Below are positions 5,928-16,130 of a stretch of DNA of 64,000 nt, piece after piece. The position numbers were made by a program, and so were the translations under genes. Numbering within the stretch: position 1 is the first letter of the stretch; each line of letters begins with the position of its first letter. The notes below the pieces were generated by a model, which saw nothing but the letters and a program-made list of their open reading frames with translations, had not been told where the DNA came from and made no database searches. Source of the stretch: a phage. Where the stretch lies: the NCBI GenBank assembly GCA_018175075.1, contig GCA_018175075.1_4100.1; one strand, given 5' to 3'.

Positions 5928-6500
5928 ATGAATCGTAAAGGTCGTTTTAAAGTATCAAAAAAGAACAAAAGTTCTAGGTTTAAACCTATTGTTTTAACAG
6001 TTAAATCTAACAAAGATTTAACTGCACTTAGTAAAAAGATAATTTCATCTAAGATTGAAGTATCATACGTAAATTCATTAAAATATATGAATGTCAAACC
6101 ACTGGACCAACTCATTTCACTTATATTTGAACGTAATGATTTTGAGATATCAGTAGATGATTATAGAGCCTATAATGCTGGTTTCATTAATGTTACTTGT
6201 AATAAAAAACTAACTGAGTTGGAAAATTTGTCATGTATAATAAATCTAGATAAAGGTGTTGTGAAGTACCATTTTGTACATTTCACTAATATCAATAATG
6301 GAATGGGTGTACAATCCAGACCTATAGTGCCTACGTGTGATGTTACTAAATTAGCAAAGCTCAATGATGAAGAATATTTTCAAGAAAGCATTGTAACTGA
6401 GCATTTAGATGATATAATAGCTACTTACAAAGAATGCATATGGGTGTTGAATGCTATAAAACCTAAATTGTGTTTAATGAATATTGTTCGTGATTTATGA
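5928..6500 (+). CDS. hypothetical protein, 190 aa
   Basis: ATG with GAGGAA RBS; track ORF at 5904 begins on GTG. Confidence 0.45.
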   Translation: MNRKGRFKVSKKNKSSRFKPIVLTVKSNKDLTALSKKIISSKIEVSYVNSLKYMNVKPLDQLISLIFERNDFEISVDDYRAYNAGFINVTCNKKLTELENLSCIINLDKGVVKYHFVHFTNINNGMGVQSRPIVPTCDVTKLAKLNDEEYFQESIVTEHLDDIIATYKECIWVLNAIKPKLCLMNIVRDL

Positions 6501-6513
6501 ATGGGGAATCGTA

Positions 6514-6957
6514 ATGAGTTGGGTAAATGTTAATAGTATTGAACTTAACGAACAAGATATTTTTGCATTTGTAAATTTAACTAATAACACAGTACTAAAA
6601 GGGCGTTTGTTCAGTGCTAGTGATGGGTACAAATGGATCTCTTTGATGGATGATAGTGGTGTGATTTATAATGTAATGCAATTACCCCAATGGGTATATA
6701 GTAACACTGCTGACGATGTTCTTACCGCAGTTATGCGTGAGTTTGAAAAACTCCCAGGTGGTGATATCAAAAACAAAGTTTTTAATGCAGAACGTAAAAA
6801 TTATACAGCACAGCAATTGGAATCCCTTGCCATTGCTGCTTATCAAGCTGCTATTAAGAAGCCAGAGTGCGTTATTCTTAAGTATGTACCAGACTTAAAA
6901 CTTACGTTGGAAAACATGGATGCATTCATTTTTACATCTGAACTTGATCAGTACTAA
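6514..6957 (+). CDS. hypothetical protein, 147 aa
   Basis: ATG with GGGGA RBS; track ORF at 6484 begins on TTG. Confidence 0.5.
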   Translation: MSWVNVNSIELNEQDIFAFVNLTNNTVLKGRLFSASDGYKWISLMDDSGVIYNVMQLPQWVYSNTADDVLTAVMREFEKLPGGDIKNKVFNAERKNYTAQQLESLAIAAYQAAIKKPECVILKYVPDLKLTLENMDAFIFTSELDQY

Positions 6958-6964
6958 TTTAACT

Positions 6965-6994
6965 TTGGGACAACCATTCTTATTATGATATAAT
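6965..6994 (+). promoter_or_regulatory. sigma70-like promoter
   Basis: TTGGGA, 18 nt, TATAAT followed by GTTTTA. Confidence 0.45.
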
Positions 6995-7072
6995 GTTTTA
7001 TGTCATTCGATATAAATGACAACGGAACTATAAATATTATAGTAAAATTTATCTCTTATAGGAGTTATAAAA

Positions 7073-7456
7073 ATGGTTGATAAATGGAATAAGAAAGATC
7101 CATCACATGATGTTGATATTTCTGGTCTAGACAATGCACATAAGCACAAGTATCTAGATTCACTAGGTCTTCTAAAACCAGACCAAAGTCTTGCACATGA
7201 TCGTCCATCCCGTGAAAAAGCATTTAGCCTAGAATCACTAGGTCATGAGCTTAATCGTGTGTTTGAGGATCACCCAATCTATGTACGTGATATTATCGAG
7301 AAACTTAAAGTAACTCCTAAAGAGCACTTTAAAGCAACTGTACACTCTGCATTCCGTGCATTACATGAATCTCTAAAGAAAACTCACAATCTTCGTAAAA
7401 TTCATGATGAAATCGTGAATGCAATCGAAAGTGAAAAACATAAGTTCAAGAAGTAA
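7073..7456 (+). CDS. hypothetical protein, 127 aa
   Basis: ATG with AGGAG RBS; shares SLGLL motif with 8800-10059 product. Confidence 0.55.
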   Translation: MVDKWNKKDPSHDVDISGLDNAHKHKYLDSLGLLKPDQSLAHDRPSREKAFSLESLGHELNRVFEDHPIYVRDIIEKLKVTPKEHFKATVHSAFRALHESLKKTHNLRKIHDEIVNAIESEKHKFKK

Positions 7457-7460
7457 TAAA

Positions 7461-7487
7461 AGGGTTGACTAAGGTCAGCCCTTTGTT
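7461..7487 (+). terminator. rho-independent terminator
   Basis: AGGGTTGACT-AAG-GTCAGCCCT hairpin then T-rich. Confidence 0.65.
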
Positions 7488-7523
7488 GTATCATAACTTC
7501 TCAATATAACTGAGGTATCATAT

Positions 7524-7637
7524 ATGCAAGGTTTGAAATTTGTAGTTGCTGCACTCATCGCTGCTGTTGTAGTGGGTACAGTATGTTATTCAATTGACAC
7601 CTATATCAATACACCTAGTGTTGAACAAACCAAATAA
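7524..7637 (+). CDS. small membrane peptide, 37 aa
   Basis: short ORF with GAGGT RBS and hydrophobic core; below the track size cutoff. Confidence 0.3.
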   Translation: MQGLKFVVAALIAAVVVGTVCYSIDTYINTPSVEQTK

Positions 7638-7645
7638 GGGATATC

Positions 7646-7909
7646 ATGGCTGAAACATTATCACTATATGCGTTAGTACTGTTATTTGTCGGATTTCTTC
7701 CCGCACTCATTACAGCCATTCGTGTTGTTAAACATGAAGCTGCATTGATTGTATGTAGTATTGGGTCGAACATTCTATTGTATTTCTTTTTGACAAATAC
7801 TATTGTACTGTTTGCTTTCTTTATCATGATTCTGTGGGTACTTGTAATTCTCGGATTCTTCATTTGGTCATTGGTTGATCCTAAGAAAAAATCAGGAGAA
7901 GTGAAATGA
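7646..7909 (+). CDS. membrane protein, 87 aa
   Basis: ATG with AAGGGA RBS; two hydrophobic helices. Confidence 0.5.
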   Translation: MAETLSLYALVLLFVGFLPALITAIRVVKHEAALIVCSIGSNILLYFFLTNTIVLFAFFIMILWVLVILGFFIWSLVDPKKKSGEVK

Positions 7910-8202
7910 AATTAATTATAGCAATGATAATGTGTTTGGCTTTCCCTGTACTGGCTACTCCTAATCTGGACTGCACACTGTTGCGTTCAGATGGTGACAC
8001 ACTTGAAATCAACACATATGAACTCTTTGGTCCAAGTGTAGTGGAGAATGAAACCACCTACAATTTCAAAGCTATTGACTTTGAAGGTAATGTTCCAGTA
8101 CTAACTACAATGACTATTGACAAAACTACTTTACTCGGACGAATCACCACACAACGCGGAGAAAGTAAAACATTCACAGCGAAAGCTGACTGTAACTACT
8201 AA
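7906..8202 (+). CDS. secreted small protein (signal peptide), 98 aa
   Basis: ATGA overlap with upstream gene; signal peptide; two Cys. Confidence 0.5.
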   Translation: MKLIIAMIMCLAFPVLATPNLDCTLLRSDGDTLEINTYELFGPSVVENETTYNFKAIDFEGNVPVLTTMTIDKTTLLGRITTQRGESKTFTAKADCNY

Positions 8203-8223
8203 TGGTATAGTACAGTGAAAATA

Positions 8224-8246
8224 GGGTTGACTTCGGTCAACCTTTA
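8224..8246 (+). terminator. rho-independent terminator
   Basis: GGGTTGAC-TTCG-GTCAACC hairpin then TTTATATA. Confidence 0.6.
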
Positions 8247-8252
8247 TATATA

Positions 8253-8795
8253 ATGGAAGAAATAAACATGGAACGTTGGAAATTAATTCCTGATTATGAC
8301 TATTCAATTTCTGATCATGGAAGAGTAAGAAACGAACAAACTGGATATATAAGTTGTGGATTTAAAAATAAAGATGGGTATGTGAAGGTCGATTTGTATC
8401 GCAATTCTGTGAAAAATAGAAAGGCGATTCATCGACTAGTAGCTGAAGCATTTTTACCACCACCCACACAGAAACAGTTACAGTGGGCGAGTAGAACAAA
8501 GAAAAAAGTTGTTCACATAAACCATAAAGATTGTAATAGAAGTAACAATCACTATTTGAATTTGGAATGGAACACAGCATCTGAAAACGTACTATATTCT
8601 TATTCACATGGTAACGCAACAACTAATCGTGGTGCTGCTGTGTTGACATGGGAAATTGTAAGAGAAATAAGAAAAGATTATAATGATAATTATAATGATG
8701 TGATAGAATATGCACGAGAAAATTGTAATAAATACCGTGTATGTAAAAAAACAATACGTCGTATTTTATACAATCAAACATGGATAGAGGATTAA
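8253..8795 (+). CDS. HNH homing endonuclease (NUMOD4-like N-terminus plus HNH motif)
   Basis: N-terminal WKLIPDYDYSISDHGRVRN and HNH-type INHKDCNRSNNHYLNLEW; free-standing between a terminator and the next gene; start may be the ATG at 8268. Confidence 0.75.
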   Translation: MEEINMERWKLIPDYDYSISDHGRVRNEQTGYISCGFKNKDGYVKVDLYRNSVKNRKAIHRLVAEAFLPPPTQKQLQWASRTKKKVVHINHKDCNRSNNHYLNLEWNTASENVLYSYSHGNATTNRGAAVLTWEIVREIRKDYNDNYNDVIEYARENCNKYRVCKKTIRRILYNQTWIED

Positions 8796-8799
8796 AAAT

Positions 8800-10059
8800 A
8801 TGCCACAAGATAATGGGGATATGAAACATCGTAATGGTGGACTAGTACAACACTCGGATAAATGGGCCGACCGAAATCGTCGCAAAAATAGTTATCAAGC
8901 AGGACAAGGTTCACGTGGTTCCAGAAACCAAGGAACGGGACTTGCTGGTAAGGCAAACGCAGAAGCAGGTGAAGTTAAGAGTACTGAGAACATGACTGAG
9001 CTAGAAAAGCTACGTTATGTTAATTCATTGGGACTTCTTAATGCTACACAAAAACAACGTCTAGCTGATATGGAACGTGAAGAAAAAGAAAAGTCTGCTC
9101 CTGCGAAAGAAGAACCAAAACAAGAAGCACCAAAGGCGGTTAACCCTGTCAAAGAACTGTCTGATAAGTTAGGTAAGATTTTTGCTAATAAACCACAACT
9201 TATCCAAGGTATTGTGAAAGAATTGCAATCTGTACCTAAAGAAGAATTAAAAGTCAAAGCACAAGCTGTACTTGATGCAATGAGTGGAAATACCAGTACT
9301 GAACCAACTGAAGTATTCAGTACTATAATGCGTGCACTTGAAGGTACGCAACAAGGTGATGTGCCTGCACAAGAGGAAGTAAGTCTTGAAAGCGTACTTA
9401 AAACATTTGATAGTATTGGTAAAGAAGACCGTGCTAATGCTCAACAAGTTAAGAATGTACTAGCTAAGTTAGAAAACCGTCTGGAAGGTAAAGACGATAA
9501 GATTAAATTAGTATCTGATGCAGTTAACGATGCACTTAAATCTTATGTACAAGGTGAAAAGAGTCGTTTTGTAACTGCAATGGATGCTGCATTCAATACT
9601 ATGAAAAAGTATGAAGCTGATCATGGTGAGAAGGTTACACGAGATGGTTATCTGATGCGTGATGATGAAGAAGGTGCAGTAGAACAGAATGATGTTCATT
9701 CAGACGAAGAAATTGATGACATGGAAGCTGAACTGTCACAAGACCGCCAAATGACTGAAAAATCCCATAACGAACTACAGAAATTAATGCAATGGGTTGC
9801 AGATGTTGGTGAAAAAGCTGGTGCTGATAAGAAGAGTATAAACCGAAATCTTAGTTGGATTAAAGATAAAGTTGGTAACAACGCTCGTAAACTACAAAAA
9901 GCGTGGACTGATGTAGTGAATGGTGCTGTTGACATTGATGTTGAATCCGGTGAGGCATATGATTATGCATTGACTACACTTGATGACTCTTTCCGTGATT
10001 ACGAAAATGGAAATGTAACTCCTTGGGAAAAGGATATCATGAGCAAATACGGTAAATGA
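8800..10059 (+). CDS. hypothetical acidic protein, 419 aa
   Basis: long ORF with AGAGGA RBS; Glu/Lys-rich. Confidence 0.55.
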   Translation: MPQDNGDMKHRNGGLVQHSDKWADRNRRKNSYQAGQGSRGSRNQGTGLAGKANAEAGEVKSTENMTELEKLRYVNSLGLLNATQKQRLADMEREEKEKSAPAKEEPKQEAPKAVNPVKELSDKLGKIFANKPQLIQGIVKELQSVPKEELKVKAQAVLDAMSGNTSTEPTEVFSTIMRALEGTQQGDVPAQEEVSLESVLKTFDSIGKEDRANAQQVKNVLAKLENRLEGKDDKIKLVSDAVNDALKSYVQGEKSRFVTAMDAAFNTMKKYEADHGEKVTRDGYLMRDDEEGAVEQNDVHSDEEIDDMEAELSQDRQMTEKSHNELQKLMQWVADVGEKAGADKKSINRNLSWIKDKVGNNARKLQKAWTDVVNGAVDIDVESGEAYDYALTTLDDSFRDYENGNVTPWEKDIMSKYGK

Positions 10060-10069
10060 TAAAACAAAA

Positions 10070-10096
10070 GGTTGACTTCGGTCAGCCTTTTTTTTG
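10070..10096 (+). terminator. rho-independent terminator
   Basis: GGTTGAC-TTCG-GTCAGCC hairpin then T9. Confidence 0.7.
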
Positions 10097-10131
10097 TAAA
10101 TACAAAAGAGGAATTAAGAAGAGGGATTACA

Positions 10132-10383
10132 ATGAAAAAATATATTATATTTGGAATTGTATTATTTTCCAGTACTGCTTATGGTGCAGATTATCATTGC
10201 TCCGTAGCAAGGCAGGATTTCAGAAATGGGGAGTTCTATACTACCTCATACACAAAAGGAATAATACACGACACCGACAGAACTATTGGATTTAATGTGT
10301 TTGACAACAAAGATTCATATACTTCAGGTATACTATCTGAGCATAAGACTGATGTAATGGGAATAGAAAAAGAGTTCCGGTGA
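10132..10383 (+). CDS. secreted small protein (signal peptide), 83 aa
   Basis: ATG with AGAGGGA RBS; signal peptide. Confidence 0.5.
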   Translation: MKKYIIFGIVLFSSTAYGADYHCSVARQDFRNGEFYTTSYTKGIIHDTDRTIGFNVFDNKDSYTSGILSEHKTDVMGIEKEFR

Positions 10384-10393
10384 TTCAGTAGTA

Positions 10394-10717
10394 ATGTGCA
10401 ATGACATTGAAAGTACTAAAACAATTTATTATAATAATGAACGTAACTATCGTTTTCATAATTTAACCACAAATAAAAGTTTACTATTTTACAATTGTAA
10501 AGAAGTAATACTCCCATCAGACAATAGCTGTACTCCAACTAATCAACCCCCAGCACAATGTAATACTCCCTCTGAACCTGATAAAAATAAAAAAGACAAA
10601 GATAAAGATAAAAAAGAAGACAAAAAACCTTTAAAAGATAAAAAGAAAGATAAAAAACCTAATCCGTTTAAAAATAATAAACCAGCACAACCCGATATGA
10701 CATGTAAAATAAAATAA
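10394..10717 (+). CDS. hypothetical protein with KDK-repeat low-complexity tail, 107 aa
   Basis: ORF with weak RBS; Lys/Asp repeats. Confidence 0.35.
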   Translation: MCNDIESTKTIYYNNERNYRFHNLTTNKSLLFYNCKEVILPSDNSCTPTNQPPAQCNTPSEPDKNKKDKDKDKKEDKKPLKDKKKDKKPNPFKNNKPAQPDMTCKIK

Positions 10718-15635: not shown

Positions 15636-15641
15636 AAGGTA

Positions 15642-15670
15642 TTGACACCGTACTCATTTAACTGTATTAT
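15642..15670 (+). promoter_or_regulatory. sigma70-like promoter
   Basis: TTGACA, 17 nt, TATTAT. Confidence 0.5.
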
Positions 15671-15700
15671 GTATGTACACCAACTAATGAGGAATCGGAA

Positions 15701-16060
15701 ATGGCATCTTTATCTGAAATCACTGAACTGAATCCACTGGTAATTAGTACTGTTCAACGCACCAAGACGTTTTACTTCCGTCCTGCTGATGGATGGAAAC
15801 GTGGAATGAATGGTGACTATCGAGTACTGGAAGATTCGCTCATCGAGCGTATCAACTCTGAACTACAGAAGTATGAAGGTGTTAAAGTTGTCCGTTCAAC
15901 TTCTCGTTATTTTGAGTACTACATTGAGTCTTCAACTGTAAATGAAAACTCATCATTCTCGGTGGATAACACTGATATTCTTCGCAATGCAGTTGGTTTG
16001 CTATGCAACATTGCAGAAGAAATGGGATTAACTATCACCACAATGAGTGAGTTAGAATAG
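15701..16060 (+). CDS. hypothetical protein, 119 aa
   Basis: ATG with GAGGAA RBS. Confidence 0.55.
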   Translation: MASLSEITELNPLVISTVQRTKTFYFRPADGWKRGMNGDYRVLEDSLIERINSELQKYEGVKVVRSTSRYFEYYIESSTVNENSSFSVDNTDILRNAVGLLCNIAEEMGLTITTMSELE

Positions 16061-16070
16061 AATAAAAAAA

Positions 16071-16095
16071 GGGTTGACTTAGGTCGGCCCTTTTG
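16071..16095 (+). terminator. rho-independent terminator
   Basis: GGGTTGAC...GTCGGCCC hairpin then TTTT. Confidence 0.65.
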
Positions 16096-16130
16096 CTATT
16101 ATATCTATATCGAAACGAAGGAGACAAACC

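Follow-up and report, generated by a model that had tools for sequence, protein, structure and literature searches.

The HNH gene and its product

The 64-kb stretch of DNA analysed here (the window) belongs to a jumbo coliphage of the Asteriusvirus group (121Q, PBECO4, phAPEC6). Over its first 15.6 kb the window is approximately 99.5% identical to phAPEC6 apart from one block, which contains a predicted HNH homing endonuclease gene (8268–8795, plus strand) that phAPEC6 does not carry. The gene is located directly upstream of the gp201-like virion structural protein gene (8800–10059, plus strand), whose 419-amino acid (aa) product matches PHROG 20398 at 9e-170 and which is the probable homing-target gene. 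The element is probably an intact, free-standing homing endonuclease gene of the I-HmuI type that is resident at this site.

The original prediction placed the gene at 8253–8795. This interval is indeed an open reading frame (ORF) of 180 codons on the plus strand, but its start is probably not the one used. The true start is most likely the ATG at 8268 (MERWK...), which gives a product of 175 aa and leaves five codons from 8253 that are probably untranslated. All 16 homologues start at this position, as do the EC.P1 annotation and the protein database cluster, and a Shine-Dalgarno-like motif lies 6–12 nucleotides (nt) 5' of the corresponding start in each homologue. Because a sigma70-like -10 box (8249–8254) overlaps the ATG at 8253, that codon would be absent from a transcript made from this promoter.

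The NUMOD4-like N-terminus and HNH motif that had been noted from the letters were both recovered by the profile search, above the curated gathering scores used as Pfam cut-offs. The NUMOD4 domain covers residues 7–49 of the ORF (30.6 bits, cut-off 23.4) and the HNH_3 domain residues 58–113 (30.1 bits, cut-off 24.8), and the product ends in a C-terminal three-helix domain resembling a helix-turn-helix (HTH). The NUMOD4 part is a DNA-binding beta-sheet region and HNH_3 the metal-dependent catalytic domain. It also matches PHROG 59 'HNH endonuclease' (E = 5e-37). The sole significant PDB sequence match is I-HmuI, an intron endonuclease of phage SPO1 (PDB 1U3E, E = 2e-5, residues 8–127). In the alignment with 1U3E, His91 and Asn112 (180-aa numbering) correspond to His75 and Asn96 of I-HmuI, and the surrounding NH.D..N..NLEW block is invariant across the 16 homologues, which were aligned at 35–85% identity. 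The structure of I-HmuI is said to assign the role of general base to His75 and that of metal ligand to Asn96, with Asp74 also binding metal. The HNH product carries the catalytic His and Asn by which an I-HmuI-like HNH endonuclease is recognised.

An AlphaFold model of the product, built from the 16-homologue alignment, has a mean pLDDT of 86.3. Foldseek analysis of this model against the PDB identified 1u3e_M as the only significant neighbour, over the full length of the protein (E = 2.2e-7, probability 1.00, 182 aligned columns, TM 0.56), and the C-terminal three-helix bundle shows likeness to homeodomain and HTH folds. By sequence and predicted fold, the product is an I-HmuI-type HNH endonuclease. 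The ratio of non-synonymous to synonymous substitution rates (dN/dS) of the gene is 0.08 against the 85% homologue and 0.19–0.30 against more distant homologues; by these comparisons purifying selection acts on the gene, which is intact.

No paralogue of the gene was found within the window by tblastn. No Rfam family, including group I introns, was matched at E ≤ 1 in 6900–10300, and the gene is free-standing. The ORFs flanking the insertion site are complete and contiguous in HNH-minus relatives. A terminase-associated packaging HNH protein of the HK97 gp74 type was considered and rejected, as there is no PF01844 match and no terminase among the neighbours, which are small membrane or secreted ORFs and the virion proteins gp199 and gp201.

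A composite terminator hairpin and promoter (8224–8254, plus strand) lies just upstream of the gene. The G+C-rich hairpin (8225–8242; GGTTGACTTCGGTCAACC, then TTTATATA) is annotated as a terminator in relatives. Its 5' arm holds the TTGACT -35 element of a near-consensus sigma70-type promoter identified by promoter scan (TTGACT-16-TATAAT, 8227–8254, 11/12 matches), with TATAAT at 8249–8254. On this arrangement the HNH gene is probably transcribed from the composite hairpin and sigma70-type, that is early, promoter. Between the HNH stop codon and the next gene, which starts at 8800, there are 4 nt, and the next terminator after the hairpin is an intrinsic one at 10066–10091 (plus strand), so the HNH gene and gp201 form one terminator-bounded unit. 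The gene itself has a terminator on its upstream side but none between it and gp201. RNA folding was used to look for a structure that would sequester the ribosome-binding site of the HNH gene, of the kind seen in T4 endonuclease genes. It gave the terminator hairpin as the only stable fold, and the region was unexceptional (z = -1.33).

The 18-nt hairpin GGTTGACTTCGGTCAGCC occurs in seven copies in the window against zero expected (4223, 7463, 8225, 10070, 11156, 16072 and 49485, plus strand). A T-run follows each copy, and in six of the seven a -10-like hexamer lies 16–18 nt after the TTGACT of the stem. By their sequence, the repeated hairpins look like units that combine a terminator with a sigma70-type promoter and are placed at intervals through the early-gene region; recombination could also use them as portable stretches of homology.

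Distribution and transfer of the HNH gene

The HNH gene is present in one of 45 matching phage records and absent from the other 44. The locus takes different states among these phages. In state A, found in 121Q, phAPEC6, G17 and the SD phages, the order is gp199, gp200 (37 aa), the hairpin, the motif TATAAATA and gp201. State B, found in the fEgEco12 clade, has in addition two small ORFs of 87 and 98 aa after gp200 and is without the HNH gene; fEgEco12 represents a natural HNH-minus allele that keeps both small ORFs. State C, which is that of the window and of phage EC.P1, consists of state B plus the HNH gene. In state D, found in phages UB and TH47, a PHROG 681 'endonuclease' of 257 aa (UB) or 394 aa (TH47) stands in place of gp200. 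In public assemblies, 23 contigs were found to encode the exact 175-aa protein, and the order is invariably 87-aa ORF, 98-aa ORF, HNH gene and gp201. Among ten loci listed, five have the 419-aa gp201 of phAPEC6 type and five the 497-aa gp201 of EC.P1 type, so that the gene resides in two backbones. The window's phage is absent from the phage collection searched. One locus (L020, an ERR3500718 contig) is identical to the window across 7300–9400 and a second (L014, GCA_052240675.1 DBJWRT010000020.1) has one base different across the same interval, and therefore the window's phage or a near-clone of it was assembled from E. coli-associated sequencing data.

The HNH gene is part of an imported recombination tract of approximately 1.39 kb (7557–8952) within a phAPEC6-type backbone. 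The left crossover lies at 7557–7562 and the last donor-type marker at 8952, and between them lie the two small ORFs, the HNH gene and a gp201 5' end of foreign type. The tract is 98–100% identical to EC.P1, while the flanks of EC.P1 are only 65–92% identical. There are 12 differences from EC.P1 between 7557 and 8921, and a single one, which is synonymous, across the HNH-specific interval 8246–8921 (676 nt). The differences from phAPEC6 show the reverse pattern. They are dense only in 7562–8952, with four in 6500–7561 (1062 nt) and five in 8953–10500 (1548 nt). Because the two patterns are reversed, the window is best described as a phAPEC6-type genome with an approximately 1.39-kb patch from the HNH-plus fEgEco12/EC.P1 clade, in which window 7568–8850 (1283 nt) stands in for 201 nt of phAPEC6. 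The left crossover falls in the gp200-like ORF (7524–7637, plus strand), a 37-aa single-pass membrane protein gene that is chimeric in the alignment, its 5' third being of phAPEC6/121Q type and the remainder of EC.P1/fEgEco12 type. At the right end, the gp201 differences from phAPEC6 at 8904–8952 are all synonymous.

Compared with fEgEco12, the BLAST and alignment junctions confine the HNH-specific DNA to 8246–8885, an interval made up of the HNH gene and a 5' end of gp201 that has diverged. On the left this DNA begins with the base that follows the terminator hairpin, and on the right it ends inside gp201. The right edge is in line with the earlier suggestion that a neighbouring gene may be the homing target, since gp201 is the virion gene downstream and the edge falls in its 5' end. 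The first 28 or so codons of gp201 (8800–8885) are a diverged homologous allele, reading MPQDNGDMKHRNGGLVQHSDKWADRNRRK against MPSNFTDKNGGNMAGHSDKWSERNRRP in phAPEC6. At the N-terminus this allele is similar to the ones in TH47, RaK2 and Klebsiella phage KP13-7, and by this likeness it appears to be left over from an exchange with a RaK2/TH47-like lineage.

The end-points of the import vary between loci. In phAPEC6-type backbones the left end-point lies at approximately 7481 (L015), 7553 (L011, L017) or 7557–62 (the window, L014, L020), and in EC.P1-type backbones the right end-point lies at approximately 8919–22 in five loci against 9024 in L016. The simplest reading of these junctions is that several independent recombination events occurred, centred on the HNH gene. 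EC.P1 was considered as the direct donor of the window tract and rejected. The two-ORF segment is nearer to fEgEco12 (6 differences against 11), EC.P1 carries a private 1-nt insertion that fuses both ORFs, and the window is foreign as far as 8952 where EC.P1 is back to its own backbone at approximately 8921. On the pattern of identity along these genomes, the HNH gene has recently been transferred between diverged jumbo E. coli phages.

These comparisons agree with the original prediction that the gene is mobile: it occurs in one of the 45 records, forms a 99–100% identical island in a 65–92% background and is found in two backbones with varying end-points. Two observations had been named beforehand as refuting the prediction, the lack of an HNH profile match and presence at the same site in all relatives without signs of mobility; both were looked for, and neither applies. 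Three points were not part of the original prediction: in this genome a 1.39-kb block with two passenger ORFs is what moves, the native promoter of the neighbour was lost on insertion, and an apparent replacement lies in the HNH ORF.

The same site is occupied by a second endonuclease family, PHROG 681, in UB (L005, 2035–2808), TH47 (L006, 2019–3203) and RaK2 (L033, 2072–3268, ORF274). RaK2 is a Klebsiella jumbo phage of another genus, and its ORF274 lies directly upstream of a gp201 homologue that is 43% identical. The UB and TH47 proteins contain CapR and treble-clef zinc-finger repeats; a C-terminal MUG113/GIY-YIG-like Pfam match is sub-threshold in UB and there is none in TH47. From PHROG 681 membership and the zinc-finger architecture, they are putatively placed in the T5orf172/GIY-YIG-like class, and this is the architecture reported for T5orf172-class homing endonucleases (PMC10448857). 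These T5orf172/CapR-zinc-finger endonucleases (Barth et al. 2023, PMC10448857; UB, TH47 and RaK2 ORF274) share with the HNH gene the position upstream of gp201 and a patchy distribution, but their protein family is unrelated, and they stand in place of gp200, the HNH gene being located instead after two small ORFs. Since two unrelated nuclease families occupy the same site, the gp201 site is an insertion hotspot, as the original prediction had suggested. The TH47 endonuclease copy and the N-terminus of TH47 gp201 are both RaK2-like, a likeness that suggests exchange between genera.

The association of the HNH gene with gp201 extends beyond the recent transfers. The HNH homologues P0002, P0004, P0005 and P0006 (85, 59, 57 and 54% identity) are all located 1–10 nt upstream of gp201 homologues, which are 84, 43, 60 and 35% identical to that of the window, respectively. 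Between the window and L021, the 85% pair, the synonymous divergence (dS) is 1.09 for the HNH gene and 1.05 for gp201, and because dS is equal in both genes, the two have co-diverged as a unit. As far as these loci allow the history to be read, the association is old and site-specific, with the HNH gene vertically kept in some lineages and laterally moved into others.

Promoter motifs and neighbouring genes

The motif TATAAATA is the T4 late-promoter consensus. Its only copy in the window (7029–7036, plus strand) is located 37 nt upstream of the gp199-like gene and served as the reference late-promoter motif. In phAPEC6, 121Q, G17 and fEgEco12 the motif also lies 41–47 nt upstream of gp201, a position from which it is absent in the window and EC.P1. 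HNH-minus genomes show the hairpin followed by TATACTATAAATA, with the start of gp201 approximately 45 nt further on. Window 8246–8850 stands in for 107 nt of the fEgEco12 HNH-minus allele, and in those 107 nt lay the TATAAATA box native to gp201 along with the gene's first 15 or so codons. By allele comparison, the native box of gp201 was deleted by the HNH insertion. Neither TATAAATA nor ATAAATA is found between 8203 and 8267, so there is no late promoter motif before the HNH gene itself.

An ATAAATA core is present within the HNH ORF (8728–8734, plus strand), where it spells the codons for Asn-Lys-Tyr and precedes the gp201 start by 66 nt. The motif is rare. In the 64-kb window there is one copy of TATAAATA against 13.8 expected and there are two copies of ATAAATA against 44.5 expected, which indicates that ATAAATA is strongly avoided, as expected if the motif suffices as a promoter. 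Both ATAAATA copies are upstream of genes whose phAPEC6 orthologues are virion proteins confirmed by mass spectrometry, and phAPEC6 (L009, 1–37500) and EC.P1 (L010, 4001–54000) each hold exactly two copies at corresponding places. For CBB, a related jumbo phage, ATAAATA found upstream of structural genes has been proposed as a late promoter (PMC5259590). The counts and positions are strong indirect evidence that the short ATAAATA motif is a late promoter in this phage group.

The embedded motif occurs at the same codons in the 85, 59 and 57% HNH homologues, 66–75 nt before gp201, and is the sole copy on each contig. In UB, TH47 and RaK2, ATAAATA lies between the endonuclease gene and gp201 or overlaps them, beside or within the 3' end of the endonuclease gene. 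A simple estimate puts the probability at approximately 100 in 128,000 that the one additional copy would land, on the correct strand, within 100 nt upstream of gp201. From this placement, and by analogy with T4, 8728–8734 is proposed to be a replacement late promoter for gp201 that is embedded in the HNH ORF. For segG/gene 32 and the mob genes of T4, the native promoter is described as displaced, the downstream gene being served by one within the endonuclease ORF (PMC2988022).

The gp199-like gene (7073–7456, plus strand) lies upstream of the HNH gene and encodes a 127-aa protein matching a 'virion structural protein' PHROG. The phAPEC6 orthologues of the gp199-like and gp201-like proteins, gp037c and gp035c respectively, were detected in virions by mass spectrometry (PMC7247149). 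PHROG 16530 is matched both by the gp199-like protein and by the N-terminal 180 or so residues of the gp201-like protein, which indicates that the two virion genes flanking the hotspot are paralogous.

The first passenger ORF (7646–7909, plus strand) encodes an 87-aa protein that is multi-pass membrane by hydropathy, and the second (7906–8202, plus strand) a 98-aa protein with an N-terminal signal-peptide-like segment. Both are native to the fEgEco12 clade and missing from the 121Q/phAPEC6/G17 group, and neither has a significant match to a Pfam or PHROG family. The label 'immunity to superinfection' on a homologue of the 87-aa protein (vB_Ec-M-J EcMJ_540, L032, 1449–1712) is unsupported, the match to PHROG 1039 being at E = 4.9. 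The private 1-nt insertion of EC.P1 (L001, 3649–4206) corresponds to approximately window position 7885 and yields an annotated 185-aa ORF, and the first passenger ORF is 85 aa in some metagenomic copies. The passenger genes may be decaying in some genomes, or these may be sequencing errors.

Further differences from phAPEC6 were observed away from the HNH locus. At approximately 15640–16100 the window lacks the DenV-type pyrimidine-dimer glycosylase gp022c (Pfam Pyr_excise) and the 628-aa gp019c of phAPEC6 (L009, 18713–21904). A 119-aa ORF (15701–16060) is found in their place, at an indel hotspot beside the hairpin copy at 16072. The gp019c product, annotated as 'exonuclease ABC C subunit', was considered as a second homing endonuclease and rejected, as it has no Pfam domain. 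At approximately 20100–23900 on the minus strand, the window contains large paralogous ORFs (298, 401 and 411 aa) like the RCC1-repeat virion proteins gp001–gp010 of phAPEC6. As approximately 20.5–22.5 kb aligns to neither phAPEC6 nor EC.P1, this run of RCC1-like ORFs appears to be a rapidly diversifying multigene family.

Homing model, alternatives and significance

The closest known system is I-HmuI of SPO1 (PDB 1U3E), with its relatives I-HmuII, I-BasI and I-TwoI, which shares with the HNH product a NUMOD4-type sheet, the HNH_3 core and a C-terminal helical DNA-binding domain. The two proteins are of similar length (174 aa for I-HmuI, 175 aa in the window) and have the general-base His and metal-binding Asn in common. 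Their sequence identity is approximately 23%, and the subclade of the window has a 12-residue insertion before the catalytic His relative to I-HmuI. I-HmuI is encoded in a group I intron of a DNA polymerase gene, whereas the window gene is free-standing. In this respect it resembles the free-standing HNH mob and GIY-YIG seg genes of T4, especially segG/gene 32 and mobE, which are likewise intergenic endonuclease genes beside an important gene (PMC2988022, PMC2790892). The T4 segG and mob systems combine co-conversion of flanking markers, a displaced native promoter, an embedded promoter and a T4-type late motif, and a like arrangement is proposed here from sequence comparison. The T4 targets are nrd and gene 32; here the carrier is an Asteriusvirus jumbo phage and the probable target a virion protein gene. 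No close sequence relationship to T4 mob proteins was detectable in the searches made. Within the same broad phage group, the Rak2-like jumbo phage CBB encodes the free-standing HNH genes CBB_420, CBB_528 as well as CBB_535, one of which was described as lying where a virion structural protein gene ends, and the CBB report contains no mobility, target or promoter analysis of them (PMC5259590).

From the sequence we infer that the HNH enzyme cleaves, and where it does so, and that the nuclease, not general recombination, would be the driver of the transfers. I-HmuI-type enzymes are strand-specific nickases. During co-infection, a long stretch in or close to the gp201 promoter and 5' region of HNH-minus genomes would be recognised by the enzyme, which would nick or cut the HNH-minus allele there. 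The break would then be resected and repaired by recombination from the co-infecting HNH-plus genome, with the HNH gene and flanking DNA being copied. Free-standing endonucleases need resection that reaches homology flanking the gene (PMC2988022). The copied length would be set by the nearest left homology in the recipient, which in phAPEC6-type recipients is gp200, and the two passenger ORFs and the foreign gp201 5' end would have been co-imported because repair had to reach back to homology in gp200. On insertion the native TATAAATA of gp201 would be lost and ATAAATA in the 3' part of the HNH ORF would replace it as promoter. Through this embedded promoter, loss of the HNH gene would be costly to the phage, as for the T4 segG and mob genes.

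Several findings weigh against this model or against parts of it. The position of Asp74 of I-HmuI is occupied by Asn90 in the HNH ORF, although this Asn is invariant in the 16 homologues, so that the substitution is better taken as a subfamily trait than as decay. The loss of 107 nt of the minus allele and the diverged gp201 5' end are indirect evidence that the HNH-plus allele may be immune to cleavage. The diverged 5' end (MPQDNGDMKHRNGG...) was considered as a recoded, cleavage-immune version of the target, and this idea is weakened because the HNH-plus loci L022, L023 and L026 carry the common gp201 allele; such recoding is not a general feature. The equal dS of the 85% pair suggests that the HNH-gp201 pair can also be inherited vertically for long periods. 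With regard to the promoter, the embedded box reads AATAAATA against TATAAATA at the two native sites. The 54% homologue (L026) is without ATAAATA at that position and has its single copy further upstream, inside the HNH gene. Conservation of the motif could also partly be a by-product of the protein, as the (N/D)-K-Y codons belong to a conserved protein motif.

General recombination could yield an identity island unaided, because these genomes are mosaic elsewhere, at several places unrelated to the HNH gene (for example 16–17 kb and 26–33 kb), and the seven-copy hairpin and the conserved flanking genes give homology for it. The block could then be an accessory module spread by ordinary homologous recombination in co-infection, its nuclease being inactive or irrelevant. 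Such a passive spread is unlikely. An inert gene is at odds with an intact and invariant active site and with dN/dS of 0.08–0.3, and an island centred on the HNH gene with varied end-points in two backbones is what break-initiated gene conversion predicts. The presence of two unrelated nuclease families at the exact site across two genera is also hard to explain without nuclease-driven insertion. Loss of an ancestral HNH gene many times over, with the patchy distribution reflecting loss and not gain, would suit the 54–85% homologues found at the same position beside gp201 in diverged lineages, yet it is highly improbable as the main explanation. For the window and EC.P1 it is already contradicted, as loss cannot yield a 99–100% identical 1.4-kb island between backbones that differ by 8–35% on both sides. 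Nor can it account for the chimeric gp200 ORF at the left junction, and the block also brings to the phAPEC6-type backbone two ORFs that the 121Q/phAPEC6/G17 group lacks.

The gene might instead be kept for the benefit of the phage, either as a weapon against HNH-minus co-infecting relatives (marker exclusion) or as a domesticated DNA-binding regulator of the gp201 promoter. The long co-divergence of the HNH gene and gp201 with equal dS, the strong purifying selection and an association conserved over deep divergence all speak for such a role. I-HmuI and I-HmuII of SPO1 and SP82 and gp210 of PhiPA3 are reportedly precedents for marker exclusion. Intron endonucleases take part in interference competition between jumbo phages (PMC11620839), and I-TevI is an autorepressor at a late promoter (PMC2988022), which provide precedents for the weapon and the regulator, respectively. 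The gene is nevertheless dispensable, being absent from the great majority of related genomes. A benefit of this kind and homing do not exclude each other and are both compatible with the sequence, which cannot separate them, and as the explanation of the locus the former is rated as quite unlikely. Homing by an intact I-HmuI-type endonuclease resident upstream of gp201 is the explanation that probably applies.

A wider reading of the locus is offered tentatively and is somewhat less likely to be right than wrong. The gp201 promoter and 5' end may be a long-lived landing pad for which two unrelated nuclease families, the I-HmuI-type HNH enzymes and the CapR-zinc-finger endonucleases, compete in at least two genera of jumbo phages. 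As an occupant, the HNH gene would be hard to lose, with the late promoter of gp201 deleted and its replacement in the frame of the HNH gene itself, and it would act as a vehicle for accessory genes between clades, in this case a membrane and a secreted protein with a possible exclusion function.

The locus involves no new mechanism, as its anatomy fits the established T4 paradigms. What is added is the precise anatomy of the block, a natural allele series, a second nuclease family at the site and the proposed promoter-capture arrangement. There is a growing view that homing endonuclease genes drive mosaicism in phage genomes and competition among phages that infect the same cell (PMC10448857, PMC11620839). 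The present analysis corrects 'hypothetical protein' annotations and flags a recombination hotspot beside a virion gene in phages that have been proposed for therapy. Sequenced jumbo coliphages provide a natural series of the empty locus, passengers only, passengers with the HNH gene in two backbones, and a second nuclease family, so that homing, co-conversion length, cargo hitch-hiking and promoter capture are testable with the existing isolates phAPEC6, fEgEco12 and EC.P1. If the landing-pad reading is true, the gp201 locus would be a tractable natural jumbo-phage system in which to study how homing endonucleases capture promoters ('addiction') and carry hitch-hiking cargo.

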